Shown here: positions 2,348 through 27,643 of the stretch, piece by piece | How positions within the stretch are numbered: position 1 is the first letter of the stretch | Layout: every line of letters begins with the position of its first letter | DNA from: an uncultured Planctomycetia bacterium | Lineage (GTDB): Bacteria > Omnitrophota > Gorgyraeia > Pluralincolimonadales > Pluralincolimonadaceae | Assembly (NCBI GenBank): GCA_964484255.1 | Contig: CAZAEH010000004.1 | Coordinates: 2,282 to 66,281 of the forward strand | Reading direction: 5' to 3' | DNA: 64,000 nt | The notes under the pieces: generated by a model | What the model was told of the DNA's origin: nothing | Seen by the model: the letters and a program-made list of their open reading frames with translations, nothing else | The model's database searches: none | Translations under genes and position numbers: made by a program

Positions 2348-5014
2348 TCAGGCGGCCTCCAGCCAGTTCTTTCCCGCTTTTATCTGGACCTTTACAGGAA
2401 CTTTAAGCCTAACCACTTCTTCCATCCTTGTCTTTACAAGACCTTTCATTACCTCCAGCTCTTCTTCAGGGACCTCAAAAACGAGCTCATCGTGTACTTG
2501 GAGGATCATCTTGGACCTCAGTTTCTTTTCGTCGATCAAGCGTTGGATATTGATCATCGCTATCTTGATCAGGTCCGCAGCCGAACCCTGGATCGGGGCG
2601 TTGATCGCCGCCCTTTCGGCGAACTGCCTGACTGAGTTGTTCTTGCTGTTTATCTCCGGCAGGTACCTGCGCCTGTTTAATATCGTGGTGACATAACCGT
2701 CATGTCTTGCCTCTTCCACCAAGCCCTCCAAAAAAATCTTTACCTTGACGTATTTATCGAAATATGCGTCTATAAACTCCTTGGCCTTGGATATCCCGAT
2801 CCTGAGTTCTTTCGAAAGCCCGAATGGGCTCATCCCATAGACTATCCCAAAGTTGACCGTCTTGGCTATAGAACGCATCTCGTTAGTGACATCATTCTCC
2901 CCGACCCCGAATATAAGCGAAGCGGTGTGGGCATGTATGTCACGGTCATTCTCGAAAGCCTTCAGGAGCTCGTTATCCGAGGAAAAATGTGCTAGTATCC
3001 TCAGTTCTATCTGCGAATAATCCGCGGCCAGTATCGACCACCCTTTGTTGCCTGATATAAAAGCTTTGCGTATCCTCCTGCCCATCTCTGTCTTTACCGG
3101 GATATTCTGGAAATTGGGATCCGAGGAACTCAGCCGGCCGGTAGCGGTTACCGTCTGGTTAAAAGACGTGTGGACCCGGCCCGTCTTGCCGTTCACCAAT
3201 TCCGGCAATGCATCGACATAAGTAGACTTAAGTTTCTGGATCTCCCTGTATTTCAACAACAACGCCGGCAAAGGGTGAGCCGCCGACAAGGTATCCAGGA
3301 CATCAACGTCCGTTGAATGGCCCGTCTTCGTCTTCTTAACCGCAGGGAGCCCGAGTTTAACAAAGAGCACTTCGGAAAGCTGTTTAGGCGAATTGATATT
3401 GAACTCTGTCCCTGCCGTTTCGTATATTTCCGCAGTCAATCTATCAAGCTGCTTTTCCATATCAACCGACATTTTGCCCAAGTAACCGGTATCGATAGCC
3501 ACCCCGGTAAATTCCATGTCCGCCAGGCAATCAACCAGCGGCATCTCGACCTCATGGAAAAGCTTGCCCATATCCTTTTCTTCAAGCTGGGCATCCAGCA
3601 CTTTTTTAAGCCTGAAAGTCGCATCAGAATCCTGGCAGCAATAGTCTTTTACACGGCCAACATCGACTTCCTTCATAGTTATCTTCTTCTTGCCCTCGCC
3701 TATAAGCTCCGTTATGGGGGTCTTCTTCAGCCCCAGGTATTCCAGCGAGATATCCTCAAGGTTATGGTTAAATTTTGAAGGGTTGAGGATATATGAAGCC
3801 ACCATAGTATCAAAGATCTGCCCTTTTATCTTCACTCCGTTTACTTCCAGAAGCAGCTTCTCGTATTTTATGTTCTGGCCTATCTTCGTTATGCCCTTGT
3901 CTTCCAATACCTTTTTAAGCTGGCCTAAAACTTCCTGTTTAGGCAACCCTCCTTCAACATCACCTATAGGAACGTAAAAGGCAAGGCCTTCCTTCCAGCA
4001 AAAAGATACGCCCACGGGTTCACAGGACATGGGATCCGGCCCGGTCGTCTCGAAGTCCAGAGCAAACTCATTTTGCGCTGACAAATCTTTAACCAACCGT
4101 TCAAGGCCGTCATTGCCAGATACAAGCCTGTAATCACCGGATATCTTCTTGCCCGGTGAAGACAGGTCCTTAAGCAAGCTCTTGAATTCCAGTTCATTGA
4201 ACAGTTCATATAATCTTTGCCCGTCAGGCGCCCCCAGGCGGAGGGATTCAAGGTCAATCTCTATGGGCACATTGCCGTCAACCGTAGCCAATTCTTTGCT
4301 CATGATCGCCTGTTCCCTGCCGGACGATATTTTTTTACGCAGGGTCTCAGACTTTATCGAATTAACGCCGTCCAAGACCTTCTCGAGGCTGCCAAAATCC
4401 TCCATAAGTTTCCTGGCAGTCACCTCCCCGACCCCGGCTATACCGGGAATATTGTCGGAAGCGTCCCCCATAAGTGCCATGAGATCCGTTATCTTCCCGG
4501 GGGGAACTCCGTATCGTTCTCTGACCGCCTCCGCATCATATATGAGCCCTTCTTTATGAAGATTGTATACGTTGGTACGCGGCCCGACAAGCTGAAGCAT
4601 ATCCTTATCCCCGGTCACTATATAGACCTCGAAACCTTCCCCGGAAGCCCTGCCGGCGACGGTCGCCAGGATATCATCCGCCTCGTAACCCTGCATTTCA
4701 AAGATCGGTATATTATAAGCCCTTACAACTTCTTTTATTATGGGCATCTGGTCTACAAGCTCTTCCGGCATCGGTTTCCGGTGTATCTTGTATTTCTCGA
4801 ACTTCTTATGCCTGAAAGTCGGCCCTTTCAGGTCGAAAGCTATCGCCATATATCCGGGCTTTTCGTCCTTGATGATCTTGTTGATCATCGTGATAAACCC
4901 GTATATAGCGTTCGTAGGCTGGCCTTTCGAGTTCGTCAGGGCCCGTATGGCATAAAATGCCCTGTAACAGAACGAATTGCCATCTACGAGAAACAACCTT
5001 CTTTTATCGGACAT
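2348..5014 (-). CDS. polA: DNA polymerase I
   Basis: 888 aa. 5'-3' exonuclease N-terminus (LFLVDGNSFCYRAFYA), C-terminal pol A family motifs (RRxAKxxNFGxxYG, QVHDELVFE). Confidence 0.9.
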   Translation of the reverse strand: MSDKRRLFLVDGNSFCYRAFYAIRALTNSKGQPTNAIYGFITMINKIIKDEKPGYMAIAFDLKGPTFRHKKFEKYKIHRKPMPEELVDQMPIIKEVVRAYNIPIFEMQGYEADDILATVAGRASGEGFEVYIVTGDKDMLQLVGPRTNVYNLHKEGLIYDAEAVRERYGVPPGKITDLMALMGDASDNIPGIAGVGEVTARKLMEDFGSLEKVLDGVNSIKSETLRKKISSGREQAIMSKELATVDGNVPIEIDLESLRLGAPDGQRLYELFNELEFKSLLKDLSSPGKKISGDYRLVSGNDGLERLVKDLSAQNEFALDFETTGPDPMSCEPVGVSFCWKEGLAFYVPIGDVEGGLPKQEVLGQLKKVLEDKGITKIGQNIKYEKLLLEVNGVKIKGQIFDTMVASYILNPSKFNHNLEDISLEYLGLKKTPITELIGEGKKKITMKEVDVGRVKDYCCQDSDATFRLKKVLDAQLEEKDMGKLFHEVEMPLVDCLADMEFTGVAIDTGYLGKMSVDMEKQLDRLTAEIYETAGTEFNINSPKQLSEVLFVKLGLPAVKKTKTGHSTDVDVLDTLSAAHPLPALLLKYREIQKLKSTYVDALPELVNGKTGRVHTSFNQTVTATGRLSSSDPNFQNIPVKTEMGRRIRKAFISGNKGWSILAADYSQIELRILAHFSSDNELLKAFENDRDIHAHTASLIFGVGENDVTNEMRSIAKTVNFGIVYGMSPFGLSKELRIGISKAKEFIDAYFDKYVKVKIFLEGLVEEARHDGYVTTILNRRRYLPEINSKNNSVRQFAERAAINAPIQGSAADLIKIAMINIQRLIDEKKLRSKMILQVHDELVFEVPEEELEVMKGLVKTRMEEVVRLKVPVKVQIKAGKNWLEAA

Positions 5015-5109: not shown

Positions 5110-5433
5110 CTATTCCTTGAGCTTTACAGCCGTTCCATAAGCATATACATAACCGCTGTAATTGAAGTAATTGATACCTACTACGTAATCGGCTCCAAGG
5201 TCCCTCGCGGTATCCTTTAATTTTCCGTTAAGGCCGTCGAGATTCACCTCTCCTCCGCGAGCCGAGATTATTCCTATTACTTTGTATGACTCCTTCAGGT
5301 CCCCCGTGGTAAGGACGATCTCTTTCTGTTTGCCGTTGGAACCCTTGTTCTTGGGCATCACCTGGGCATCAATTGTCGAAACCAATACCAGTGCAGCCAA
5401 AACGGCTGCAACTATAAATATATTACGCTTCAT
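5110..5433 (-). CDS. YbjQ/UPF0145 (DUF74) family protein with an N-terminal Sec signal peptide
   Basis: 107 aa. Signal peptide MKRNIFIVAAVLAALVLVSTIDA. C-terminus LGADYVVGINYFNYSG..YGTAVKL resembles E. coli YbjQ LGADAVVGIDIDYE..VSGTAVK. Confidence 0.5.
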   Translation of the reverse strand: MKRNIFIVAAVLAALVLVSTIDAQVMPKNKGSNGKQKEIVLTTGDLKESYKVIGIISARGGEVNLDGLNGKLKDTARDLGADYVVGINYFNYSGYVYAYGTAVKLKE

Positions 5434-6554
5434 AGTACCGGTTCTCCTCTGGAATCAAGTACCGTAGCCGTAAGGAAGATCAAAAGGTTCTTCTTCGCAC
5501 TGGTGCTGTGATGGGTCTTAAAAAGATCCCCTACCAGCGGGAGATCTCCCAGTACGGGCACCTTCCTCTTCGTGACATCCTCAGTCTCCCTGATAAGGCC
5601 GCCGATAACAACAGTTTCTCCGCTTTTTAGGACTACCGACGTCTGCGTAGTCCTGGTATCTATTATGGGGTAACCGAGCCCGTCAGGAAACTCATCTGCG
5701 GCTGAAATCGGCACCTGGTCGACCAGGACACTTACTTCCGGATGTATATCCATGGTGATTATCTTGTTGTCGCCTGAAACGGTAGGAGTGACTTCAAGCA
5801 TGATCCCGGTAACCTTTTCGGCAACTTTATATACCTCGACCATGATAGGCCTGCCGGTAGTACCGATATTCGTCCTCGTGAAATCGGAGGCATAGGGCAC
5901 TATATTGGCAAGCTGTATGTTGGCCATCTGCCCGGAAAGCGTCGTTACCGTAGGCGACGAGAGCAGGTTTAACTTGCCCTGCTCCTCAAGGGCCTTTATA
6001 TGCATTCGTATCTGGTTACCTGCAGCCGTGAAAGTGCCGAGTTGTAAATCCAGACCGCCGGCTTCGTTTGCAAGCCCGAATACACCTGCAAGATCATCAT
6101 TGGCATCGCTTCTGTCCAGCATGGAACTAGAGAACATACTTACGCCGGTATTGCTGAAACGATTATTCTTTTCCGCGGAGCGGTTGGGTCTGTACCATTC
6201 CCATTCCACTCCAAGTTCTTCTATATCGGTAACATCTATCTCCACGAACCTGGCCTGGATCTTAACCTGGCTGGGACCGGTGTCCCAAAGCTCGATTAGG
6301 TCCCTTGCCAATACCTGGTTGGTCGGGGTGTCCGTTATAGTCAAAACACCGGTGATATCATCCATCACTATCTTCCTTTCCGGGTTCTCCGGTAGGGCCT
6401 GCTGAAGATAGTCTTGAATATTGTCGGCCTCTCCACCTGATGAGATTTCTCCTGCCCCCTCGCTTTCCGCCTGGGCAAACACGTTTGAAGAAACAAAAAA
6501 AGCAAAGGCCGTTATAACCGTTGCAAATATCAAAACCCGGACGGTCATCTTCAT
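5430..6554 (-). CDS. Short secretin (signal peptide, single N3-type domain, C-terminal secretin domain; no N0 domain)
   Basis: 374 aa. N3-like segment QVKIQARFVEIDV. Secretin C-domain VPVLGDLPLVGDLF ... NLLIFLTATVL. Paralog of the next gene. Confidence 0.8.
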   Translation of the reverse strand: MKMTVRVLIFATVITAFAFFVSSNVFAQAESEGAGEISSGGEADNIQDYLQQALPENPERKIVMDDITGVLTITDTPTNQVLARDLIELWDTGPSQVKIQARFVEIDVTDIEELGVEWEWYRPNRSAEKNNRFSNTGVSMFSSSMLDRSDANDDLAGVFGLANEAGGLDLQLGTFTAAGNQIRMHIKALEEQGKLNLLSSPTVTTLSGQMANIQLANIVPYASDFTRTNIGTTGRPIMVEVYKVAEKVTGIMLEVTPTVSGDNKIITMDIHPEVSVLVDQVPISAADEFPDGLGYPIIDTRTTQTSVVLKSGETVVIGGLIRETEDVTKRKVPVLGDLPLVGDLFKTHHSTSAKKNLLIFLTATVLDSRGEPVL

Positions 6555-7642
6555 CTTACCGCCTCCCCTCTGGCATTGATGATGCTCGCCGTGATGAAAA
6601 TAAGGAGGTTCTTCTTGCGCTGGTTCTTGTAATCATATTGGAACGCCTTGCCCAGGACAGGAATATCTCCAAGTACGGGTACCTTCATCTTCGTTATAGT
6701 CTCTTCATCCTTTATCATGCCGCCTAACACTATCGTCTGTCCGCTGTCAACAACAACACTCGTCTGGGCGGTCCTTACATCCACAACCGGCCAGCCTAAC
6801 GAATCAGGGATCAACGGCACGGCATCTGTCGCGGTGACGTTTCCGAGCTGCCCGGTCTCACCGCTCGTGGTCAACGTGGATATGCTTACCTGGTCCTTAA
6901 GGATACTTACCTCGGGATGCAGGTCCAGGGTTATGGTATTGGAGCCTTCGGTCACATAGGGAGTAGCTTCAAGGAATATCCCTATGGGTTTCTCAGCCAA
7001 TGTAAGTTTATAACTCCATATAGGATCTTCGGCCGTACCTATGTTCTCAAGGGTGAAATCCGACACATAGGGCTGCGTCCTTACAACCTGGATATTGGCC
7101 ATCTGTCCTGCGATCGTGGTGATCTTAGGTGAAGACAAAAGGTTGGCTTTGCCCTGTTCGGCCAACGCTCTAAGATTGGCAACAAAATAATCGCCGCCTT
7201 CCAGGATCTTAAAGAGCATCAACTGGCTGGCATAACTTCCGGAAAGCGGGAAAGCTCCCGCAGCGCTGTCCCAGACAACCTGTCCCGGCCCGACCCTGCT
7301 GCCCCTGAGACCCTTATTGCTGGTATGGCCTTCATGCATCTCATAATATTCTACGCCAAGTTCCCAGAGATCGGTAACATCGACTTCGACGAACCTTGTC
7401 TCTATCATGACCTGTTTAGGCCCGACCTCGTACTGCTTAATAAGGTCCTTTATGAGGGATTGGTTCGTCTTCGTGTCTGTCACCGTAAGGAGCTTCGTGG
7501 CCTGGTTGTATGTTATTTTCCTGCCGTCCTGCGGGGGCAGGCTGTTCTGGAGATATTCGGCAATGGTAAGATCTTCCGAAGACGCGATACAGGGGAGCCC
7601 CAAAAGGGAAACGACTGCTAGAATAAGGAGATTTTTTCTCAT
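6551..7642 (-). CDS. Short secretin paralog (signal peptide, N3-type domain, secretin domain; no N0)
   Basis: 363 aa. QVMIETRFVEVDV; VPVLGDIPVLGKAF...NLLIFITASII. Overlaps the downstream paralog by 4 nt. Confidence 0.8.
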   Translation of the reverse strand: MRKNLLILAVVSLLGLPCIASSEDLTIAEYLQNSLPPQDGRKITYNQATKLLTVTDTKTNQSLIKDLIKQYEVGPKQVMIETRFVEVDVTDLWELGVEYYEMHEGHTSNKGLRGSRVGPGQVVWDSAAGAFPLSGSYASQLMLFKILEGGDYFVANLRALAEQGKANLLSSPKITTIAGQMANIQVVRTQPYVSDFTLENIGTAEDPIWSYKLTLAEKPIGIFLEATPYVTEGSNTITLDLHPEVSILKDQVSISTLTTSGETGQLGNVTATDAVPLIPDSLGWPVVDVRTAQTSVVVDSGQTIVLGGMIKDEETITKMKVPVLGDIPVLGKAFQYDYKNQRKKNLLIFITASIINARGEAVR

Positions 7643-7644
7643 GT

Positions 7645-8760
7645 CTATTCCTGTTTGGTCTCGAATTCTTTCAGTTTAACTTCCCTGGTCTTACGTTCCG
7701 GATATTTAAGTTTGTAGGTCCTGGTAACCAAGTCTTCTTTCTGTATTACGGATTTGCTTGATACATAGACGTAATTCGGTTCTACTTTATATGCCAACTG
7801 CGTTGTCTTGAAAGCTATATCCAATACATCAAGAAGTGGCATAGGAGTAGCCGTGCTCAAGGAAATCTTTATAGGGCTGTCTTTTGTGAGGTTGGCAAGC
7901 TCCCTCTCGTCGACAACAATCGTAACACCCGTCATCTCCATCAGCTGGCGGATAAGGTCTTGGATATCCGCATCGGTTACCGAGATCGCCGGGACCATTA
8001 CGCTGCGCATCTTGTCGACCAGGGCTTTTTTCGCTTCCTGCTCGGCCCTTTCGGCCTCAGATATAACTTCTTCTATCTGTACCTCTTCCTTAGCCGGAGG
8101 CGTAGGAGGCAACCAACTCCTGTCTACGTCCCGCAGCGAAGCCTGCTCTGCGGTTTCCTTTTCCTCGCTTATAACCTGTCTGTCTTTAATTATATCCTTG
8201 CGCTCCTCAAGCGTGGACTTTTCCCTGAGATAATAGTTTTCGGCTTTTTGGGCTTTCTCAAGCCATAGACGCGCCTCTGAATCATTTGGGTTGGCCGCGA
8301 GAGCAGTCTCAAAATCGCTTACCGCCGCGGAATACTGCTTATTGGCATAATTGGCCTTACCCCTCTTTACCATGGAACCCGTTACCGTTCCCGGAACATC
8401 CTTAACTATCCCTTCCTTGCATAACTCGACGTAATGGACCGCAGACTTGTTCTTGGGGTCCATCTGGACGATCTTCTCGAACAGTTGTTGGGCAGTTTCG
8501 TAATTTTTGGCTTCGTATTCTTTTTTAGCTTGGCTGAAGAGGTCTGAAATAACGGTTTTCCGTTCGATCTTCTTTTGCTTTGCGAGGTCCTGGGCTACTA
8601 TCTTGGCTTCAATGGACTCATCGGAGTACGCTGAAGTGCTTGCTGCGCGGGCTTCACTTCCCGAGAAATAAAACAATGAGATAATAAAGAACAAATTAAA
8701 AGTCAGGCAAATACAAAAAAACGGCAGTACCGTTCTTTTAACCCCATTGGTAATATCCAT
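7645..8760 (-). CDS. Membrane-anchored TPR-repeat protein with a C-terminal secretin-N0-like domain
   Basis: 371 aa. N-terminal TM segment, TPR-like repeats (AKNYETAQQLFEKIVQMDPKN; KQYSAAVSDFETALAANPND). C-terminus ISVTDADIQDLIRQLMEMTGVTIVVDE...ISLSTATPMPLLDVLDIAFKTTQLAYKVEPNYVYV aligns to the N0 domain of the full-length secretin at 51116..52876 (ITLDFKDADIQNVLRVLAFKSGINIVAGKEV...VDVPWEQALAVILNTYGFAYERDGNIITV). Confidence 0.55.
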   Translation of the reverse strand: MDITNGVKRTVLPFFCICLTFNLFFIISLFYFSGSEARAASTSAYSDESIEAKIVAQDLAKQKKIERKTVISDLFSQAKKEYEAKNYETAQQLFEKIVQMDPKNKSAVHYVELCKEGIVKDVPGTVTGSMVKRGKANYANKQYSAAVSDFETALAANPNDSEARLWLEKAQKAENYYLREKSTLEERKDIIKDRQVISEEKETAEQASLRDVDRSWLPPTPPAKEEVQIEEVISEAERAEQEAKKALVDKMRSVMVPAISVTDADIQDLIRQLMEMTGVTIVVDERELANLTKDSPIKISLSTATPMPLLDVLDIAFKTTQLAYKVEPNYVYVSSKSVIQKEDLVTRTYKLKYPERKTREVKLKEFETKQE

Positions 8761-8765
8761 TTATA

Positions 8766-9443
8766 TCATCTCCCCTTGTTAATAACCCACTCTTGATTTT
8801 GGCCGTATAATACCACACTACCCGGCTTTATGTCAAGAACTTTATAACCGTTGTATTCCTCGCCCTTCTTGACTTCGAAGGTCTTGTCGTTCATTGAGTC
8901 GTATAATTTAGCTATAAGCTCTTTACTTTTAACGGGTTTCTTGTATTCAAGGATAAGCTGGCCGTCCCTATTTTCGGCCTTTATCAGTTTGGAGTTTATC
9001 TCCAAAATTTTGTAATCCTTAAACTTTTCCCCCTTCTTAGCAAAATATGTCTTGCCCGACCAGTTGATTTGCCCTATCATGGTCCCATCCTGCTTCTGGA
9101 TGAAGCCGTTATACATAAAAGGCAGATTATTCGCCCCTATAGAAACCACCTTAAGCTTTTCAGGGCTGAACTGTTCGGGGGGCGCTTCCGGTTTGATAAA
9201 GATGTTCCTGTCGAACAAAGGTTTATATCTCGATATTGCGAACGGTGAATTGATGCCATCGATAAGCGCGGCATAATTGTCGGTTGTATCCGTGACTTCC
9301 AGGCCCTGGGCTTTCTGCATCCCGGCCTTCTCCTCCATTAAAACACCGGATTCTTCAGGCGCAAAAAGGGACGAGCCCCTCCAGATAAAGATAAGCCATA
9401 TCGCAAACAGGATTATAGTTGCTATTTTATACGCATCCTTCAT
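8766..9443 (-). CDS. PilP/GspC-like periplasmic protein with N-terminal TM anchor and two tandem HR-type beta domains
   Basis: 225 aa. Internal repeat YFAKKGEKFKDYKILEINSKLIKA / FEVKKGEEYNGYKVLDIKPGSVVL resembles the PilP core of locus B (LKVGDILGDYKVTKITEDEVTL). Confidence 0.45.
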   Translation of the reverse strand: MKDAYKIATIILFAIWLIFIWRGSSLFAPEESGVLMEEKAGMQKAQGLEVTDTTDNYAALIDGINSPFAISRYKPLFDRNIFIKPEAPPEQFSPEKLKVVSIGANNLPFMYNGFIQKQDGTMIGQINWSGKTYFAKKGEKFKDYKILEINSKLIKAENRDGQLILEYKKPVKSKELIAKLYDSMNDKTFEVKKGEEYNGYKVLDIKPGSVVLYGQNQEWVINKGR

Positions 9444-19460: not shown

Positions 19461-20210
19461 CTACTGTACGCGTATGAAATCCGTGAAAGTCCTCTTCTGG
19501 CTCCCGTCGCGGCTTTGTATAGTTATTGAAACCGCTACCGCATTGGGCAAACCATCCGGGACCTTCGCGTTATTCCCGTAGTCATAATTCTGGTTGGGAC
19601 TCCCGTCAAGGAGATCCAGGCCGGAATTCCATTCGCTTACCGTCGTTGTCGAAGACCCCCCGACGGAAGACTTATAATAATATGTGAACTGCAAGTCCGT
19701 AACATTGTGCGCTATGATATCATCGGAAAAAGTCCCTGAACTGTTGTTGGAAAAATCGTATACCACCGGGACCGTACTGCCATTGAAATATTCGAAATGC
19801 CTAATTAGGCAGTTATCGTCACGAAGCCAGTAACCTATTTCACACAGGTCCTGCATGCCGGGGTTATCTTCAACCGGGGCCACAAGGAACAATTCATCGG
19901 CGATAGAACCGGACTTTATTATATAGGTGCTGCCTTTGTCGTTACCCTGGAACTTTGTCCAATATCCAGTGTTATCCGATTTCTGGTAAAGCACGGCAGA
20001 GGGTATCTCTTTGCGCATAAGTTCCAGCGCGAACCTGCCGTTCTGGTATATATCCAGCAAGGTCTCGGATTTACGCCATGAGTCGAGGGCCCCCCTGAAG
20101 ACCGTAAATAGCGATAGAACAACTATAGAAAAAATGACGGAAACTACCAGTATTTCAACAAGGGTGAGCCCTGCCCTGCCGGCTCTTGAATGCCTACCTG
20201 TCCGCGACAT
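19461..20210 (-). CDS. GspJ-like minor pseudopilin
   Basis: 249 aa. Prepilin N-terminus AGLTLVEILVVSVIFSIV. Confidence 0.6.
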   Translation of the reverse strand: MSRTGRHSRAGRAGLTLVEILVVSVIFSIVVLSLFTVFRGALDSWRKSETLLDIYQNGRFALELMRKEIPSAVLYQKSDNTGYWTKFQGNDKGSTYIIKSGSIADELFLVAPVEDNPGMQDLCEIGYWLRDDNCLIRHFEYFNGSTVPVVYDFSNNSSGTFSDDIIAHNVTDLQFTYYYKSSVGGSSTTTVSEWNSGLDLLDGSPNQNYDYGNNAKVPDGLPNAVAVSITIQSRDGSQKRTFTDFIRVQ

Positions 20211-20547
20211 TTATGGTAAAACCTCTCTGAAAACCCTTATTGCCTTGCCCCCAGCCGACAGTGCAGATCACCTGCCTTAAATTATCCACGGAGGTGGTCG
20301 AGACCGTCTGGGTCCAGGTATATGCGGGGTCTGTGAATGTGCCTGAGGTGGTGCCGAGACTGGGAAAACCGCTGTTCCTTATCTGTTCAAAATGCTCGTG
20401 GGCGAATATCGTGGCCTGGGTAGCACTTACCGACCTTCGGGCGGAATCGAAACCTATCGGGAAAAGGGACAATATCCCCACAAGCCCTATCGCGAGGATA
20501 GAAAGAGAGATGATTATTTCGATGAGGGTAAATCCGCTCCTATTCAT
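20194..20547 (-). CDS. GspI-like minor pseudopilin
   Basis: 117 aa. MNRSGFTLIEIIISLSILAIGL. Confidence 0.6.
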   Translation of the reverse strand: MNRSGFTLIEIIISLSILAIGLVGILSLFPIGFDSARRSVSATQATIFAHEHFEQIRNSGFPSLGTTSGTFTDPAYTWTQTVSTTSVDNLRQVICTVGWGQGNKGFQRGFTINVADR

Positions 20548-20574
20548 GCTGCGCCCTCGCTTTTACCGGCCCGG

Positions 20575-21075
20575 CTATCTGGTCCAGTTCGTTACGTTGT
20601 CCGTGCCTCCGACCACCCTGTCCGGACCATACGAAATAATATCGACATAATAGCCGCCGTGTCCCGAAGTATCAGGATTAGTGTAAGTTAACGCCGTCCC
20701 CCACGCATCTATTATCGTATTACCTCCGGTAAGGTCACCGTCCTTGAACGTCATGTACGGCCCCGACCAGTTGGTGGTGGGAAGGGAATAAGAAGTTACG
20801 GTACCTATAGTATAGGTACCCGTATTGCTGACCAGGCAGTTGTAAAGGTTAGTGTTGCCGCTCGAGGGATAACCGCCGAGGTCAGCCTGGAACATCCCAA
20901 TGCCGGTCTCTATCGCGGCTATCATCGCTTTGGTGCGGGCTATCATCGCCTTCTGCCTTGCGGTCTGGGCGGCAGCCGCCACCAATCCCGCTAACAGCAA
21001 TATTATAGTCATGACGACCACGAGTTCTATTATGGTGAAACCTTTCTTCCTGTTCGCCCTAACCATATTAACCAC
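20575..21075 (-). CDS. gspG: GspG-like major pseudopilin
   Basis: 166 aa. KGFTIIELVVVMTIILLLAGL, then a GspG-like body (PYMTFKDG...DAWG). Confidence 0.7.
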   Translation of the reverse strand: MVNMVRANRKKGFTIIELVVVMTIILLLAGLVAAAAQTARQKAMIARTKAMIAAIETGIGMFQADLGGYPSSGNTNLYNCLVSNTGTYTIGTVTSYSLPTTNWSGPYMTFKDGDLTGGNTIIDAWGTALTYTNPDTSGHGGYYVDIISYGPDRVVGGTDNVTNWTR

Positions 21076-22333
21076 CTCCTAAAGCGGTTACGAGCTGGAA
21101 GAGCGGCATGAACATGGCTATTACTATGAAACCGACTATCATACCCAGCCCGATGATCAAGAACGGCTCGAGCAACGACATCAAGCCCGTTACCGTGACA
21201 TCTACTTCTTCATCATATACATCGGCAACCTTCAGCAGCATCTGGTCCAAGGCACCCGTCTCCTCCCCTACGGAGATCATGTTAACGGCCATCGCAGGGA
21301 AGAGCCCTGCCTTAAGCAAGGGCTTGGCTATCGTCTCTCCTTCCCTTACCGCATCATGAACCACCACTATAGAACGGGCCATCGCCTCATTGCCGGTAGT
21401 GTCCTTTGAGACCATAAGGGACTGCAGTATAGGAACACCGCTTGATAACAGTGTCCCGAGCGTCCTCGAGAAACGGGCAATGGCTATCTTCCTCAACAAC
21501 TGACCCATTACCGGTATCTCCAACTTACCCTTGTCGATCAGGAGCTTTGTCACGGGCAAACGATATAGGACATTCCATAGGACGATGAGCAATACTATCG
21601 AGCCTATACCGATATACCATTTGCTCCTTGCAAAATCGCTGACCACGAGCAGGACTTTGGTCATTACCGGCAGCTCCACGTCCATTTCTTTGAATATCTG
21701 CAAAAATTTGGGGACGATAAACGTTATAAGAAAACCCAGGACCGATAGAGCCATGGTAAGAACGAGGGCGGGATAGACCATGGCCGATTTTATCCTTCCC
21801 TCCAACCTTTGGGATTTTTCGGCAAACTCCGCAAGACGGGTAAGCACCACTTCGAGCACACCGCCGGCCTCGCCCGCTTTTACCGTATTTACATACAGAG
21901 GGGGGAACGCCTTGGGAAACTTCGAAAGCGCTTCGGAAAAGGAGCTGCCGCCTTCGACCTGCTCTGCAAGCCCGCGGATAGTAGTCTTCAATACCCCCGA
22001 CTTCTCCTGCCTTTCGAGGACATATAAGGCGCGGACAAGGGGCAGACCGGAACCTATAAGGGTAGCCAGCTGCCTGGTAAACACGGTTATCTGCTTGGCG
22101 CTGACACCTCCGAACGACAAACTTAAAACTGACTTCGCCGGCTTGGGGCCGCCGGGTATCTCCCTGCTCCTCAAGGGAGAACCGTTACCTTTATCCTTCT
22201 CTTCGTTGATACTTATGGGATAAAGGCCTTTCTGGCGCATCTGTTCCATGGCATCCTGGTTTCCGGAAGCCTCGAGCCTGCCCTTGCTCTCCTTGCCGTC
22301 CTTGTCTATAGCGACGTAATTGAAGATGGCCAT
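21068..22333 (-). CDS. gspF: Type II secretion / type IV pilus inner-membrane platform protein
   Basis: 421 aa. Two GspF repeats and three TM segments. Confidence 0.85.
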   Translation of the reverse strand: MAIFNYVAIDKDGKESKGRLEASGNQDAMEQMRQKGLYPISINEEKDKGNGSPLRSREIPGGPKPAKSVLSLSFGGVSAKQITVFTRQLATLIGSGLPLVRALYVLERQEKSGVLKTTIRGLAEQVEGGSSFSEALSKFPKAFPPLYVNTVKAGEAGGVLEVVLTRLAEFAEKSQRLEGRIKSAMVYPALVLTMALSVLGFLITFIVPKFLQIFKEMDVELPVMTKVLLVVSDFARSKWYIGIGSIVLLIVLWNVLYRLPVTKLLIDKGKLEIPVMGQLLRKIAIARFSRTLGTLLSSGVPILQSLMVSKDTTGNEAMARSIVVVHDAVREGETIAKPLLKAGLFPAMAVNMISVGEETGALDQMLLKVADVYDEEVDVTVTGLMSLLEPFLIIGLGMIVGFIVIAMFMPLFQLVTALGGG

Positions 22334-22403
22334 TAATTTTATCTCCCCCTTCTATATTATAAATATACCTTATACAAAGGTCTTTGTCAAAGGCTCAAAA
22401 AAA

Positions 22404-24137
22404 CTACATTACGGAAGATTGAGCCTCCTTTAGCACCTCTTCTGCGGTCGTGACCCCTGCGTTTACCTTTTCCAAGCCGTCGTCCAGGAGCGTCTTCATG
22501 CCGTTCTCAATAGCAGCTTTCCTTATAAGGGCTGTATGCGCCTTTTCTATTACGAGCTGCCTTATCTTTTCATTTAATACAAGGAGTTCATATATACCCG
22601 TCCTGCCTTTATAGCCCGAATTGTTGCATTTCACGCAACCCACGCCCCTGTAAAATTTCCTGTTCTTTGCTTCTTCGGGAGCCAGCCCCAGGTCGGATAT
22701 CAGTTCGGGTTCCGGAGTATACTCTTCCTTGCAGTTCTGGCATATCTTGCGCACGAGCCTCTGGGCAAGCACCGCTTCAAGCGTGGAAGTAACAAGGAAT
22801 GGCTCGATGCCCATATCGATCAACCTCGTGATCGTGCCTGCCGCGTCGTTGGTATGCAGCGTCGAGAAGACCAAATGTCCGGTAAGGGACGCCTGTATCG
22901 CTATCTGTGCGGTCTCGGCATCCCTTATCTCACCTACCATTATTATATCGGGGTCCTGCCTTAATATATGGCGAAGGGACGTGGCGAATGTAAGGCCTAT
23001 CTTGGCATTTATCGGGACCTGTATTACACCCTTAAGGTCGTACTCGACAGGATCCTCGGTAGTGATCACCTTATACTCTATCTTGTTTATCTCCCTCATA
23101 CATCCGTACAATGTAGTGGTCTTGCCGCAACCGGTCGGCCCGGTAGTAAGGAATATGCCGTTTGGCTTGATTATTATATTCCTTATCCTCTTCTTGGTTT
23201 CATCCAGCATTCCGACCTCATCTATAGAAAGGCTGACCGTCGTCCTGTCGAGGACCCTCATGACGATGCTCTCGCCGAATATCGTAGGCAAAGTAGAGAT
23301 ACGCAGGTCCACGCTCTTGCCTTCTATTGTGACCATGATACGTCCGTCCTGCGGAAGGCGGCGTTCGGCTATATCAAGGTTCGCCATGACCTTTATCCTG
23401 GATGACAGGCCAAGGCTCAAGTTCTTAGGAGGCCTGGCCACCTCATAAAGGACGCCGTCCACCCTGTACCTTATCCTGTAATCTTGTTCGAAAGGCTCGA
23501 AATGTATGTCTGATGCCTTCTCCCTGACCCCCTGGAGAAGTATCATATTAAGAAGCTTGATGACAGGGGCGCGTGAAGCAAGCTCCTGGAGTGTAGCTAT
23601 GTCATTTATCTCTTCCCCCTCAGGAACAAGCTCCATCTTCTCGCCAAAGACGCCGAGGACATCCTGTATCGTTTCGCCCTCGGAACCGTAATACCTTTGT
23701 ATCTGCTCTTTTATCTCCTCATCACTGGCAACCACACCCTTTATGTTCATTCCGAGGGTGAACCTCAGGTCGTCAAAAGCGGCTACATTTAGCGGGTCCG
23801 CTATGGCTATTGAAAGCTGGTTGCTTTCAACAGAAACAGGAAGTATGGTATATATCTTCGCAACGGAAGCCGGGACCTTGTCAATTACCTCCTTCGGGAT
23901 CTTCATGTCCTTGAGCCTGACCACAGAGAACCCGGACCGCGCCCCAAGCAGCTGCAGGATATCGTCTTCCTTGACAATGCCCATATCGACGAATATCCTT
24001 CCAAGAAGTTTGCCGGTAAGCTTTTGCTCTTCCAGCGCCTGCTCGAGCTGGCGTTCGTTTATCATCCCCTTCTCAAGGAGAAGCTGGCCTATCCGCTTGT
24101 ATTTTTCCTGTTTAGGTTGTTCTTTTTCGGCAGCCAT
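22404..24137 (-). CDS. gspE: GspE/PilB-family secretion ATPase with MshEN-type N-terminal domain
   Basis: Walker A GPTGCGKTT, Asp box, tetracysteine CQNC...CVKCNNSGY. N-terminal RIGQLLLEKGMINERQLEQALEEQ-KLTGK-LLGRIFVDMGIVKEDDILQLL matches the tandem 24-residue MshEN motif with a 5-residue spacer. Start set at Met7 (GGAG RBS upstream); the track ORF extends to 24155. Confidence 0.9.
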   Translation of the reverse strand: MAAEKEQPKQEKYKRIGQLLLEKGMINERQLEQALEEQKLTGKLLGRIFVDMGIVKEDDILQLLGARSGFSVVRLKDMKIPKEVIDKVPASVAKIYTILPVSVESNQLSIAIADPLNVAAFDDLRFTLGMNIKGVVASDEEIKEQIQRYYGSEGETIQDVLGVFGEKMELVPEGEEINDIATLQELASRAPVIKLLNMILLQGVREKASDIHFEPFEQDYRIRYRVDGVLYEVARPPKNLSLGLSSRIKVMANLDIAERRLPQDGRIMVTIEGKSVDLRISTLPTIFGESIVMRVLDRTTVSLSIDEVGMLDETKKRIRNIIIKPNGIFLTTGPTGCGKTTTLYGCMREINKIEYKVITTEDPVEYDLKGVIQVPINAKIGLTFATSLRHILRQDPDIIMVGEIRDAETAQIAIQASLTGHLVFSTLHTNDAAGTITRLIDMGIEPFLVTSTLEAVLAQRLVRKICQNCKEEYTPEPELISDLGLAPEEAKNRKFYRGVGCVKCNNSGYKGRTGIYELLVLNEKIRQLVIEKAHTALIRKAAIENGMKTLLDDGLEKVNAGVTTAEEVLKEAQSSVM

Positions 24138-24144
24138 GCTTACG

Positions 24145-25857
24145 CTACTCCTCATAGCCGTGCGTGATGCGCACGACCTCAGAAATTGTCGTTATGCCTT
24201 CCCTTACCTTATTAAGGCCGTCTTCCCTCAGGAGCTTCATGCCGTTGCGGCGCGCGGCTTCCCTTATCTCTTGCGAAGAAAGTCTCTTCACTATCATTTC
24301 GCGTATTTCGTCATTGTTGACCAGAAGCTCAAATATTCCGATCCTTCCCTTATACCCGGTATAATTACACATCTTGCATCCCTTGCCCCTGAACAGCTGC
24401 ATTCCTTCAACGGCTTTTGGATCGGCTGATTTTTGCCCGAGGACATATAACTCTTCATATGAAGGTTTATACGGCTCCTTGCAGTTCTGGCATATCTTGC
24501 GCACAAGCCTCTGGGCCATTACCGCCTGGACCGTAGAACTGACGAGATATGACTTGACACCCATATCTATTAGTCGGGTAAATGCGCCGGCGGCATCGTT
24601 GGTATGCAGAGTACTGAACAGCAGATGTCCCGTAAGGGCGGCTTGTATGGCTATAGATGCGGTCTCAAAATCGCGGATCTCGCCGACCATTATTACATCG
24701 GGCGCCTGCCTGAGCATAGTCCTCAAGCCCGAGGCAAAGGTAAGGCCTATCGAAGGCCGTACATGGACCTGGTTTATACCCGATATCTGGTACTCGACCG
24801 GGTCCTCTACCGTTATGAGTTTTTTGTTGGGTTTATTTATATAGCTAAGGGCCGCGTAAAGAGTCGTCGTCTTTCCGCTTCCGGTAGGGCCCGTAATAAG
24901 CAACATGCCGTACGGCAGGTGTATAAGCTTCTCGAAAGTCTCGGCATCCTCATGGAGGAATCCGAGTTCAGCGAGGCCAAGCATAAAACTGGATTTGTCG
25001 AGGATCCTCATGACCACGCTCTCACCATATATAGCCGGAAGTGTAGAGACGCGCAGGTCAAGGTCCTTGCCCATGCCTTGTATCCTGATCCTGCCGTCCT
25101 GCGGAAGGCGCTTCTCGGCTATATTCATGCCCGCCATGATCTTAAGGCGGCTCAATATGGAAGGTTGCAGCTGTTTTGGGGGGCCGGGAACTTCATGCAA
25201 GACGCCGTCTATCCTGTACCTTACGCGGAACTTGTCTTCAAGCGGCTCAACATGTATGTCGGAAGCGCGGTTCTTTACGGCTTCGGATATTATCTGGGTA
25301 ACAAGCTTTATTATGGGTGCCTCGTCTTTTTCCTCTTCTTTCACGACTTCAGCCGCGACACCTTTAAAAGACACCGTCGCGTTATCATTCTGTTTCTGCG
25401 CAACGGCATCCAGTATGTTCTTGCTTCCTCCATAATGTTTCTCAAGCGCTATATTTATGTTCGACTCGGAGCTAAGCACAAAATCAAGCTTCGAACCTGT
25501 AAACGTTTCAAGGTTATCCTGTGCCAGAAGGTTAATGGGGTCATCCGTCGCAACGGTCAGGATATCATTCTCGAATTTTATGGGAACTAACTTGTGGCGG
25601 TATGCTAATGCCGGTTTTACCTTGGAAAGGATATCGAAGGGGATCTCCATATCAAATATAGGGGTGCGCACAAGGGAGAATTCCTGGATTATAAGGTCCC
25701 TGAGCTGTTCGGTCTGGAGGAACCCTATACCGTTGAGGATATCGGAAAGGCGGTTTCCGGAATCAAGCTGCGATTTTAGGACACTCCTTAATTGGGATTC
25801 GTCAAGTATCCCTATCGACTTGAGGTATTCGCCTATAAGCCTGCTTCTATTGATCAA
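24145..25857 (-). CDS. Second tandem GspE/PilB-family ATPase (TTG start as called by the track)
   Basis: 570 aa. GPTGSGKTT, CQNCKEPY...CKMCNYTGY. N-terminal LIGEYLKSIGILDESQLRSVLKSQ-LDSGN-RLSDILNGIGFLQTEQLRDLI is MshEN-like. Confidence 0.9.
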   Translation of the reverse strand: MINRSRLIGEYLKSIGILDESQLRSVLKSQLDSGNRLSDILNGIGFLQTEQLRDLIIQEFSLVRTPIFDMEIPFDILSKVKPALAYRHKLVPIKFENDILTVATDDPINLLAQDNLETFTGSKLDFVLSSESNINIALEKHYGGSKNILDAVAQKQNDNATVSFKGVAAEVVKEEEKDEAPIIKLVTQIISEAVKNRASDIHVEPLEDKFRVRYRIDGVLHEVPGPPKQLQPSILSRLKIMAGMNIAEKRLPQDGRIRIQGMGKDLDLRVSTLPAIYGESVVMRILDKSSFMLGLAELGFLHEDAETFEKLIHLPYGMLLITGPTGSGKTTTLYAALSYINKPNKKLITVEDPVEYQISGINQVHVRPSIGLTFASGLRTMLRQAPDVIMVGEIRDFETASIAIQAALTGHLLFSTLHTNDAAGAFTRLIDMGVKSYLVSSTVQAVMAQRLVRKICQNCKEPYKPSYEELYVLGQKSADPKAVEGMQLFRGKGCKMCNYTGYKGRIGIFELLVNNDEIREMIVKRLSSQEIREAARRNGMKLLREDGLNKVREGITTISEVVRITHGYEE

Positions 25858-25967
25858 AGCCCGACTTTCTCCCCCTTATATTTCACGAGCGCCGCGGCCG
25901 CTGCGCAATCACCATGTTCCGGAGAAACTTTGTTCACCTTGTCCTCAGGCAACCCAAGCTTTACCCT

Positions 25968-25996
25968 TATATTACCACATTTTGTATTTACTTCAA
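25968..25996 (-). promoter_or_regulatory. Candidate sigma70-type promoter for the locus A operon
   Basis: Minus-strand TTGAAG (25996..25991), 17-nt spacer, TAATAT (25973..25968), about 110 nt upstream of the gspE TTG start. RBS AAGGGGGAG lies before the start. Confidence 0.3.
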
Positions 25997-26029
25997 CTAT
26001 TTTACGGTCGGATGCCAACCTTTCGATAC

Positions 26030-26425
26030 CTATTTCCTGGTAATAATAAAAACCGTCAAAAGCACTATCAGGATAAAGACAAGAATATAGAAATCGTTCA
26101 GGTAAACGAAATCCCTGACTTTATCAAAAAGCGAATACCTTTGCCTGCTTTGGGGTTCACTCGGAGGGGATAGATGATAGATGGGGACAGACTGGTGTTT
26201 TAGCACCTTTAGGCGGCTCTTAAGGGCCTCGACCTGTCCCTTCCTGAGCCTTATGAACTCCCCTCCTATCCTGTAGGCCGGGATCTTGCCTTCGGCCACG
26301 AAAGACCTGACATCCCCCTCGTCCAACTCGAGTATGCTTGCAGCTTCCTCGATAGTTATAAGCCTTTCGCGGTCGCTTTTCCCGTCCGGGACTCTATTTA
26401 ATTCTCTCCGAGCTGATCCATTCAT
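26030..26425 (-). CDS. Excisionase-family HTH (HTH_17) protein with C-terminal transmembrane anchor
   Basis: 131 aa. LITIEEAASILELDEGDVRSFVAEGKIPAYRIGGEFIRLRKGQVEAL; C-terminal hydrophobic segment FYILVFILIVLLTVFII. Confidence 0.5.
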   Translation of the reverse strand: MNGSARRELNRVPDGKSDRERLITIEEAASILELDEGDVRSFVAEGKIPAYRIGGEFIRLRKGQVEALKSRLKVLKHQSVPIYHLSPPSEPQSRQRYSLFDKVRDFVYLNDFYILVFILIVLLTVFIITRK

Positions 26426-26933
26426 CTATTTTAGCTTTGTCAAAATGAAGTTTATCGCCTTCCCTGATGGACGGCAGTTTTCCGTTAGATGTCCAATCCG
26501 ATACGACGGAGATATCCACTTCCAGATACCTGGCAACCTCATCTATATCCATCAACTGCGCTCCGGATTGGGAAACGCTTTTTATCCCGGAGGTCATCTG
26601 GCAGTTCCCGTTCAAGACAGAACCCTTGCCCACCTCAAGCAGGGGAGTGCGTATATTGCCGTCCACCCTGGCGGGTGAAATAAGCTTCAGGGATTTCTTC
26701 GCGACAACCTCGCCTGTTACCCGGCCGGCTATAGTAATCTCGTCGCCGGTTATGTTGGCGTTGACGAAAGCCTTCTCGCCTATGGTCAAAGTCCCCTTTG
26801 TGTCCAGGGTACCTTCGAACCTGCCGTTTATCTGCAGGTTCACGGGATCTTTGAACGACATGGTGCCTTGCATGCTGGCGTCTACGTCCAATACCTTCTC
26901 TTCAACCTTCTTGTTCTTGCCTATCATCGCCAA
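26394..26933 (-). CDS. Bactofilin (DUF583)-domain protein fused to a C-terminal excisionase-family HTH
   Basis: 179 aa. Bactofilin beta-helical repeats INGRFEGTLDTKGTLTIGEKAFVNANITGDEITIAGRVTGEVVAKKSLKLISPARVDGNIRT..GKGSVLNGNCQM. C-terminal MDIDEVARYLEVDISVVSDWTSNGKLPSIREGDKLHFDKAKIDEWI. Confidence 0.6.
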   Translation of the reverse strand: MAMIGKNKKVEEKVLDVDASMQGTMSFKDPVNLQINGRFEGTLDTKGTLTIGEKAFVNANITGDEITIAGRVTGEVVAKKSLKLISPARVDGNIRTPLLEVGKGSVLNGNCQMTSGIKSVSQSGAQLMDIDEVARYLEVDISVVSDWTSNGKLPSIREGDKLHFDKAKIDEWISSERIK

Positions 26934-26962: not shown

Positions 26963-27643
26963 TCAGATATCCGACATCACCTTCCAGTCCGCCCTTGCCA
27001 CGCCCTTGAGTTGGCGTATCTTGGAGATTATCTCATTGTCATATTCGTTGCTTAAAAGCTTGAGGTTTATCCTTAGGACCATGCCCTCGCAGCCCTGCAT
27101 TCTTTTAGCGTCGAAATCCTTTATCTCAATATCATATTCTGAAAGTACGTCGCGTATCTCCTCCAACTGGACAACCCCGCTCGGTACCTCTATCTCGAGC
27201 GATTTATACCAATCCTTGCGAATCATTATCTTTTCCACCCTGTTGAGAAAGAAGAGAGTGGCAAGCACTATGGCTGTAGCGGCGGCCGCAGGAGCAAAAA
27301 CACCGGCGCCGACTGCAAGGCCTATGCCGGCCACGGTCCAAAGGCTTGCGGCGGTCGTAAGCCCTCTTACCGATGCCTTGAACCTGATTATGGTACCGGC
27401 ACCCAGAAAACCTATACCGCTTACCACCTGCGCGGCGATCCTGCCCGGATCGGGTGTAGAAAGTCCCCTGTATATATCGAATATATGCATGGATGTCAGC
27501 ATTATAAGGGTAGAGCCCACGCCTACGAGTATATGGGTCCTGAAACCCGCAAGTCTGCCGTGTATCTCGCGCTCATATCCCACCAACCCGCTCAGAAAAG
27601 CGGCAAGACATAACCGTATTATCATCTCGTAATCGGAAAGCAT
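26963..27643 (-). CDS. mgtC: MgtC/SapB family membrane protein
   Basis: 226 aa. GYEREIHGRLAGFRTHILVGVGSTL signature. Confidence 0.8.
   Translation of the reverse strand: MLSDYEMIIRLCLAAFLSGLVGYEREIHGRLAGFRTHILVGVGSTLIMLTSMHIFDIYRGLSTPDPGRIAAQVVSGIGFLGAGTIIRFKASVRGLTTAASLWTVAGIGLAVGAGVFAPAAAATAIVLATLFFLNRVEKIMIRKDWYKSLEIEVPSGVVQLEEIRDVLSEYDIEIKDFDAKRMQGCEGMVLRINLKLLSNEYDNEIISKIRQLKGVARADWKVMSDI

Follow-up and report, generated by a model that had tools for sequence, protein, structure and literature searches.

Two overlapping genes, here designated A and B, lie on the minus strand of a 64,000-nucleotide stretch of contig CAZAEH010000004.1 (hereafter the window), from an uncultured bacterium that GTDB places in the Omnitrophota. 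Sequence comparison, structural models and analogy with known systems suggest that A and B form a two-gene cytoskeletal module, consisting of a membrane-bound bactofilin scaffold that displays winged helix-turn-helix (wHTH) domains and a tail-anchored wHTH partner. We give this explanation about an even chance of being correct. The A–B pair does not appear to be an accessory of the secretion operon that neighbours it in the window. Both domains are ordinary members of known families, and no description of their combination with an obligatory partner was found in the literature searched.

Gene A joins a bactofilin core to a C-terminal wHTH

Gene A (26394..26933, minus strand), assigned from Pfam, its homologues and an AlphaFold2 (AF2) model, encodes the bactofilin–wHTH fusion. 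A preliminary description of this DNA had placed a bactofilin and an excisionase-type HTH in this interval, and both domains scored above the curated Pfam thresholds. Residues 14–112 matched PF04519 (Bactofilin, IPR007607; E = 2.1e-23, 82.8 bits against a gathering score of 27.9) and residues 127–175 matched PF12728 (HTH_17; E = 1.4e-8, 35.3 bits against 27). In NCBIfam, the TIGR01764 'excisionase family' model scored 30.8, just above its cutoff of 28.8, and the BldC subfamily model NF033787 gave 21.8 bits, far under its cutoff of 77. The domain fusion was thus upheld, whereas the TTG start assumed for the gene is probably incorrect. Counted from TTG at 26933, the open reading frame (ORF) is 179 amino acids (aa) long; the true start is likely the ATG at 26927, giving 177 aa, because homologues begin with M-[L/I/M]-G-K and are mostly 177–178 aa long, and because independent gene callers give 177 aa on metagenome contigs carrying an identical B protein.

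The AF2 model of A, built on a 121-sequence alignment, showed a beta-helix at residues 16–113 (predicted local distance difference test [pLDDT] score 88–97), a disordered linker at residues 114–126 (pLDDT below 50 at 117–123) and a wHTH with helix-helix-strand-strand-helix topology at residues 127–178 (pLDDT 84–92). In the wHTH, DSSP assigned helices to residues 130–137, 141–149 and 166–178 and strands to residues 156–158 and 161–165, with no MerR coiled coil. The predicted template modelling (pTM) score was 0.57, in keeping with two domains that have no fixed orientation to each other. The flexible linker (residues 113–126; 26556..26597, minus strand), delimited by low pLDDT and absence of conservation, varied in both sequence and length in the homologue alignments.

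Structural comparison supported both assignments. For the bactofilin beta-helix domain (residues 14–112; 26598..26894, minus strand; PF04519, PDB profiles and Foldseek), a Foldseek search of the PDB retrieved BacA (2N3D) with a TM-score of 0.86 on the target and a root-mean-square deviation (rmsd) of 2.2 Å, and the Thermus bactofilin as well; PDB profile searches gave 2N3D (E = 1.9e-9) and 6RIA (E = 9e-8). The C-terminal wHTH of BldC/Xis type (residues 127–179; 26397..26555, minus strand; HTH_17, BldC profile and Foldseek) was matched best by BldC (6AMA/6AMK; TM-score 0.75–0.80, rmsd ~1.5 Å), followed by the RdfS excisionase, RacA (5I44) and the Pukovnik excisionase (Xis), and also by CbpM (3UCS) and DafA (9DVI). 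BldC (6AMA) was likewise found in the profile search (E = 2.4e-3). Judged by these profiles and the model, A combines the beta-helix of a genuine bactofilin with a BldC/Xis-type wHTH on a flexible linker.

Bactofilins are described as beta-helical cores whose disordered tails recruit clients via short peptides. The tail of A is modelled as a folded wHTH at a position where bactofilins typically have an unstructured tail, and the earlier remark that an HTH is unusual on a bactofilin was borne out in that a folded tail domain is atypical.

Features associated with polymerisation and membrane targeting were also found in A. In the PDB profile alignment, L107 of A aligned with F130 of BacA and F105 of the Thermus thermophilus bactofilin (TtBac), and the BacA F130R and TtBac F105R (crystal structure 6RIA) forms are non-polymerising. 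This column is hydrophobic in all 80 A sequences (L in 53, F in 21, I in 5 and V in 1), so the alignment indicates that the hydrophobic end-interface residue for polymerisation is retained. The N-terminal peptide MIGKNKK... (26895..26927, minus strand) resembles a membrane-targeting sequence. Column counts gave the family form as M, 1–3 hydrophobic residues, (G), K/R, x, K/R, K, without Phe at position 2; the bactofilin membrane-targeting consensus is MFSKKKK, in which a hydrophobic position 2 and lysines 4 and 7 are critical (PMC12448750). From these features, A is predicted to be a polymer-forming bactofilin that probably binds the membrane.

Gene B is predicted to encode a tail-anchored wHTH protein

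Gene B (26030..26425, minus strand; Pfam, homologues and AF2) encodes a protein of 131 aa and overlaps A by 32 nucleotides (nt; 26394–26425) in a different reading frame. Residues 22–69 matched HTH_17 (E = 6.6e-8, 33.1 bits against a Pfam cutoff of 27), and TIGR01764, a generic excisionase-family domain, scored 34.5 against 28.8. This wHTH (26219..26362, minus strand; HTH_17 and the 4J2N profile) has a basic wing (YRIGGEFIRLRK) and retrieved the Pukovnik Xis gp37 (4J2N, E = 5e-4) in the PDB profile search. It is 38% identical to the HTH of A over 34 aa (pairwise E = 3e-6), in agreement with the paralogy proposed earlier. The AF2 model of B comprised the wHTH (residues 22–76), a disordered linker (77–98), a short helix (99–109) and a transmembrane (TM) helix (111–130, pLDDT 87–92). 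DSSP placed helices of the wHTH at residues 25–32, 36–44 and 62–76 and strands at 50–53 and 57–61, again with no MerR coiled coil.

The single C-terminal TM anchor in the preliminary description was also recovered. The hydrophobic helix has a Kyte–Doolittle 17-residue mean of 3.34 at residues 112–128, with 3 residues after it, and a single TM segment stands at the extreme C-terminus in 78/78 distinct B sequences (17-residue means 2.2–3.4, 0–4 residues following). The most conserved segment of B is not the HTH; it is the juxtamembrane motif (R/K)DFxYFNDFY, which is near-invariant in these 78 sequences and reads DFFYFNDFY in the window. Motif and tail anchor together span residues 99–130 (26036..26131, minus strand; 78-sequence comparison and AF2). 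The close homologues of B numbered 30. By sequence and model, B is a tail-anchored protein whose predicted topology would present the wHTH to the cytoplasm.

The N-terminus of B differs among clades. In the window clade (L006–L022), the 32-nt overlap with A encodes a 21-residue extension at the N-terminus of B (26363..26425, minus strand). The B proteins of other clades begin at the HTH itself (M-x-E-K-L-L), 1–159 nt past A. Extra small HTH_17 genes occur 3–8 kb downstream of A–B in some Omnitrophota loci (L001 12734–12931, and second B-like matches in L024, L034, L040 and L069), and one of them is a stand-alone gene of 65 aa. The 64-kb window contains no further bactofilin or HTH_17-like copies.

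The A–B pair is an invariant unit

To describe the genomic context, ten window proteins, together with LarB, LarC and the B homologue of L001, were compared with 85 loci. Counts are given for the 80 species-genome loci, with the loci that have enough flanking sequence as denominators. B comes after A in every locus that has 500 nt or more of downstream sequence (75/75), the gap ranging from −32 to +159 nt. The 32-nt overlap could suggest that A and B are a single frameshifted gene or that one is a chance ORF. The probability of such an artefact is practically negligible, since the two genes are separate with variable spacing in all 75 species, both are under clear purifying selection (A has 51–97% identity between species, and motif and TM segment are retained in B) and both pass the Pfam gathering thresholds. 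The single-gene and chance-ORF candidates were rejected on these grounds, and A and B stand as two genes, as first described.

Distant A–B pairs (36–43% identity) persist while their flanks change. In L089 (43% identity), the order is gatAB-ctpB-deacetylase-tsaD-A-B-SNase-tilS...ftsH. In L087 (1–5569, 36% identity), the genes ahead of A–B encode a protein exceeding 1300 aa, one with a SPOR domain, which binds septal peptidoglycan, and a TPR/PDZ protein; these neighbours hint at a division or envelope context. The pair is an invariant unit, kept in every Omnitrophota genome sampled, and its conservation in small genomes suggests a core cellular role.

The bactofilin–HTH architecture is common in one candidate phylum

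A word-indexed search yielded 1184 homologues of A, the best 120 of which were examined for domains. All 120 carry both domains in 176–188 aa, and those with names are labelled 'polymer-forming cytoskeletal protein [Candidatus Omnitrophota]' or 'excisionase family DNA binding protein'. When the GTDB species were scanned with one genome each, a relative appeared in at least 551 genomes; the best 80 of these carry mostly Omnitrophota or Omnitrophica labels, with a minority named 'uncultured Planctomycetia'. Furthermore, a HMMER search of 1.84 billion cluster representatives gave 8313 matches, mostly plain bactofilins, with 20 clusters below 1e-30 and about 22 representatives spanning both domains.

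No phylum other than Omnitrophota was seen among the named distant clusters looked up (25–47% identity; most are nameless), whose only taxon names were 'PVC group bacterium' and 'Omnitrophica WOR_2'; for most metagenome proteins, however, no taxon is given. Judged by these searches, the bactofilin–HTH architecture is common within one candidate phylum, and none was seen in named taxa outside it. The preliminary description had allowed that the architecture might already be common and annotated. It is indeed common and bears automatic names, whereas no published description of the fusion, of the partner gene or of their conservation was found in the literature searched.

The neighbouring secretion operon is a variable insert

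The conserved upstream block of the pair is ctpB-(PF04748 deacetylase)-tsaD-(mgtC)-A-B, with CtpB in 53/57 loci, TsaD in 62/68 and MgtC in 60/75. The downstream side varies: larB follows the pair in 37/62 loci, 9/41 have a GspE-type ATPase no farther than 9 kb away and 17/41 have polA no farther than 9.5 kb away. In the window, A–B is on the same strand as two GspE/PilB-like ATPase genes and 170 nt upstream of them. These genes belong to a secretion cluster of ~21 kb (5430..25857, minus strand), followed by polA (2348..5014) and glgA (949..2346).

This arrangement underlies the earlier proposal that A–B is a scaffold or regulator for the adjacent machinery, which resembles a type II secretion system (T2SS) or type IV pilus (T4P). 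A–B would position or control that machinery, analogous to the Myxococcus BacP–SofG–PilB/PilT system, in which a bactofilin scaffold positions pilus ATPases. Besides the proximity in the window, the presence of GspE within 9 kb both in the window clade and in a second clade (L067, L068, L071 and L083) is in line with such a role. However, A–B is kept without GspE in most of the 41 loci with at least 9 kb downstream, and among the GspE-linked loci, larB-larC separates the pair from gspE everywhere but in the window and its nearest relative.

The window clade (L007, L010, L012, L013, L016 and L019–L022) has the order A-B-larB-larC-gspE-gspE-gspF, and nucleotide alignment matched the window from 26025 to 26006 to L007 from 8130 to 9900. 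The window and its nearest relative UBA6215 (L006) have lost about 1.77 kb that held larB and the greater part of larC. A remnant of larC, comprising its C-terminal 54 codons (25854..26018, minus strand; LarC nickel-insertion family PF01969, positions 326–366 of 375, E = 7e-6), is left between B and gspE, so that the pair does not lie directly upstream of the operon as had been described. This deletion indicates that the adjacency of A–B and the secretion genes is recent and incidental. Moreover, polA-glgA follows two genes after A–B in L003 and L031, so that the conserved housekeeping backbone holds the secretion operon as a variable insert between B and polA. The stable neighbours of the pair are ctpB, tsaD and mgtC on the upstream side. 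The operon is therefore unfit for inferring the function of A–B. A functional tie to it was rejected on synteny and the larBC deletion, and a scaffold for the secretion machinery is a very improbable role for the pair.

The remnant scar also occurs in UBA6215 and in metagenome contigs including L097 and L098. Its stop overlaps the gspE start by 4 nt, and intact larC presumably does likewise. The T2SS/T4P-like cluster encodes two tandem GspE paralogues, GspF, three pseudopilins, a PilM–PilN fusion, a 953-aa PA14 protein, a beta-helix protein, an 858-aa T2SSK-like protein, a TPR protein and two tandem secretins. Upstream of A, mgtC (26963..27643, minus strand; PF02308, E = 4.2e-40) encodes a membrane protein of the MgtC/SapB family whose C-terminus is weakly ACT-like (E = 0.024); this usual upstream neighbour directly precedes A in the 60 of 75 species counted above and is missing from the others.

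Lack of operator room weighs against a regulatory switch

The distance from A to its upstream gene is 29–35 nt in the window, with a median of 35 nt across loci (the gap heuristic is noisy for ~19 loci, where the mgtC match was filtered out), which leaves no room for an operator of A's own. Around A–B, neither promoter-like sites (16 against 11.3 ± 4.1 expected) nor terminator-like sites (11 against 10.8 ± 3.1 expected) gave a signal. The idea of a polymerising transcription factor, also raised in the preliminary description, is weakened by this lack of operator room together with a wHTH that lacks the basic DNA contacts of BldC (see below).

A related alternative is a switch in which B, or the wHTH of A, would act as a regulator, unable to bind DNA while the polymer holds it and freed on envelope stress. 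In the precedent from Bacillus subtilis, the HTH protein BacR is bound by two bactofilins, BacE and BacF, which retain it at the membrane and inhibit its binding to DNA (PMC13649987). The upstream genes with envelope-related functions, namely the S41 CtpB-like protease and the PF04748 deacetylase, as well as the SPOR protein in L087, fit this idea. Against it, B is permanently tail-anchored, so that release would need proteolysis; neither A nor B has DUF4004 similarity at E ≤ 0.1; and upstream of A there is no space for an operator, with promoter-like sites at chance level. We consider such a switch improbable.

The wHTH of A lacks DNA-contact residues of BldC and is acidic

The wHTHs of 80 A and 78 B sequences were aligned with BldC and Pukovnik gp37, and the BldC DNA-contact positions were read off. 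In BldC, K26 and R30 contact bases, T27, T29 and K33 contact phosphates, and H46, R47 and R48 lie in the wing; R30A, H46E and G44E lose DNA binding (PMC5859096). At the R30-equivalent, A has Glu in 53 and Asp in 16 of the 80 sequences (acidic in 69/80). The K26-equivalent is S/N/G/A and the H46-equivalent is W/L/F. The R47-equivalent is deleted, the wing is one residue shorter, and the R48-equivalent is R/K/H. In addition, the R22-, T42- and R50-equivalents are acidic in at least 71/80 sequences. Other positions are kept: W147, K152 and R/K157 of A are conserved and align with BldC W31, K36 and R41, and the hydrophobic residues of the BldC head–tail interface are retained (F21 as L, V23 as V and W31 as W).

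The net charge of the A wHTH is −4 in the window, with a family median of −2 (range −5 to +1), and the family median for B is 0; counted from their sequences over the same span, BldC has ~+6 and gp37 ~+4. The acidic character and the lack of Arg30-type contacts suggest that the wHTH of A is more likely a protein-pairing or regulatory module. CbpM and DafA, which act by binding proteins, are among its fold matches and provide precedent for MerR-like folds as protein binders.

The wing of B is basic, with Arg at the R48-equivalent in 78/78 sequences and R/K at the R50-equivalent in 77/78. Its T29-equivalent is K/R in 58/78 and its R41-equivalent is K/R. This basic wing makes B a better candidate than A for DNA contact. 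The N-terminus of the B recognition helix is acidic, with mostly E/D at the P25-, K26- and T27-equivalents.

A membrane-proximal scaffold as the preferred model

Based on these features, we propose that A would polymerise on the inner face of the membrane and thereby form a regular array of wHTH modules. The array may engage the wHTH of B head-to-tail, as in BldC and Xis filaments; head-to-tail oligomerisation is known for this wHTH class from BldC (PMC5859096). In this way the polymer would gather B at the membrane together with any ligand of B. Of the two wHTHs, that of B would be the likelier to contact DNA, and that of A would more probably serve in protein pairing or regulation. A scaffold close to the membrane would result, tethering or sequestering a wHTH ligand, for which nucleoid DNA is the simplest candidate.

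Several points weigh against this proposal. Polymerisation, membrane binding, the A–B contact and the ligand are each proposed from sequence, models and analogy. Given the acidic start of its recognition helix, B may likewise fail to bind DNA. Recognition helices with a conserved Glu can nevertheless read cytosine, as with Glu181 of CAP, and the wHTH of A could thus be a DNA binder after all. The net charges of the A and B wHTHs showed no covariation across 78 species (rho −0.04), although this is a weak and crude test. Finally, a second Bactofilin–HTH subfamily, 25% identical to A, has Glu at the R30 position and no B partner, which indicates that the acidic surface is not specific to B and is not explained by B alone.

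An alternative is that both wHTHs bind DNA and that the polymer is a multivalent DNA-binding surface at the membrane that organises, anchors or helps segregate the chromosome. Such a nucleoid–membrane tether would equate A–B with RacA plus DivIVA in one polypeptide, or with BacNOP–PadC–ParB. It agrees with the wHTH fold, whose closest relatives are architectural DNA binders that oligomerise on DNA (BldC, RdfS, Xis and RacA), with the conservation of W147, K152 and R/K157, and with single-copy synteny in all sampled species genomes, which fits a core cell-biology role. The second subfamily, moreover, stands beside a ParA/MipZ-like ATPase, an arrangement that recalls BacNOP–PadC–ParA (PMC5703909). 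The charge data do not favour this alternative: the wHTH of A is net acidic where BldC and gp37 are strongly positive, its R30-, K26-, H46- and R47-equivalents are E/D, S/N, W/L and a deletion, and B has E/D at the three positions that start the recognition helix. We regard the tether as the most serious of the alternatives, although less likely than the scaffold. A more far-reaching version, in which A–B is an unrecognised nucleoid–membrane tether or chromosome organiser at the core of ultrasmall uncultured Omnitrophota, and in which the paralogue and its ParA/MipZ-like ATPase position cargo, is slightly less probable. The membrane-proximal scaffold remains our preferred explanation.

Related bactofilin fusions

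The second Bactofilin–HTH subfamily comprises proteins of 186–203 aa with a canonical N-terminus (MKFFSQKKR) in 11 clusters, one of which is named Omnitrophica WOR_2. Its genes (L086 6001–6567, L093 3754–4317 and L091 179–754) have no HTH–TM partner and lie downstream of a 465-aa ParA/MipZ-like ATPase with a carbohydrate-binding AMPK1_CBM module and of two unknown genes. Depending on the contig, the genes nearby encode Volactin (actin-like) and MamF_MmsF, or GvpA gas-vesicle and two-component proteins. By its gene content, this cluster could position cargo.

Two further metagenome proteins, P0188 (253 aa) and P0233 (364 aa), have bactofilin cores 41–46% identical to that of A and carry other folded domains at the C-terminus, namely PilZ and 3D. 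PilZ is of the cyclic di-GMP receptor type, and 3D is of the cell-wall lytic-transglycosylase type. The existence of these fusions suggests that the use of a bactofilin as a polymeric display scaffold may be a broader principle.

Comparison with known systems

Like Caulobacter crescentus BacA (2N3D) and the Thermus thermophilus bactofilin (6RIA/6RIB), A has a PF04519 beta-helix core and a hydrophobic residue at the F130/F105 position; its short basic–hydrophobic N-terminus resembles MFSKKKK. Unlike canonical bactofilins, its tail is a folded wHTH, its gene is always paired with a tail-anchored wHTH gene, and no cell-wall enzyme client is evident. A folded DNA-binding-type domain on every bactofilin subunit, together with a membrane-anchored paralogous partner, departs from the usual picture of bactofilins. 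The wHTH itself shares its fold and topology, without a MerR coiled coil, with BldC and the excisionases or recombination directionality factors (Pukovnik gp37 and RdfS). Here, however, the base and groove contacts of A are replaced and the domain is net acidic, and whereas BldC and Xis are free proteins of 60–70 aa that assemble head-to-tail on DNA repeats, the wHTH of A is tied to a polymer and that of B to the membrane.

In the RacA–DivIVA chromosome anchor of sporulating B. subtilis, too, a MerR-like wHTH is linked to a polymeric scaffold at the membrane. The YpG contacts of RacA are made by the Arg that corresponds to BldC R30 (PMC5859096), a position where A has Glu/Asp; furthermore, RacA and DivIVA are two distinct polypeptides, the latter of which is a coiled coil and not a beta-helix. 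In the Myxococcus BacNOP–PadC–ParABS system, a bactofilin scaffold positions DNA-segregation proteins (PMC5703909). There and in the BacP system, the links are made by the adaptors PadC and SofG and not by a fused HTH; no ParB-like, PadC-like or SofG-like genes accompany A–B, and, unlike BacP, A–B has no conserved synteny with pilus or secretion ATPases (9/41 loci).

If the wHTHs bind DNA, A–B would be a compact chromosome–membrane tether in a lineage without a cultured model; if they bind protein, it would use a MerR-like fold as an adaptor, in a cis version of the BacR–bactofilin switch. With 177 and 131 aa, the two proteins are small and easily tested in a heterologous host. In B. subtilis, as here, an HTH gene shares an operon with a bactofilin, and the theme of a polymer and a membrane-held HTH is common to both. 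BacR (YhbD, DUF4004) is a separate soluble protein, whereas A–B has one HTH within the bactofilin polypeptide and a second in an integral membrane protein. By this analogy, A–B looks like a fused, membrane-anchored elaboration of the BacR–bactofilin theme, which is its nearest functional precedent.

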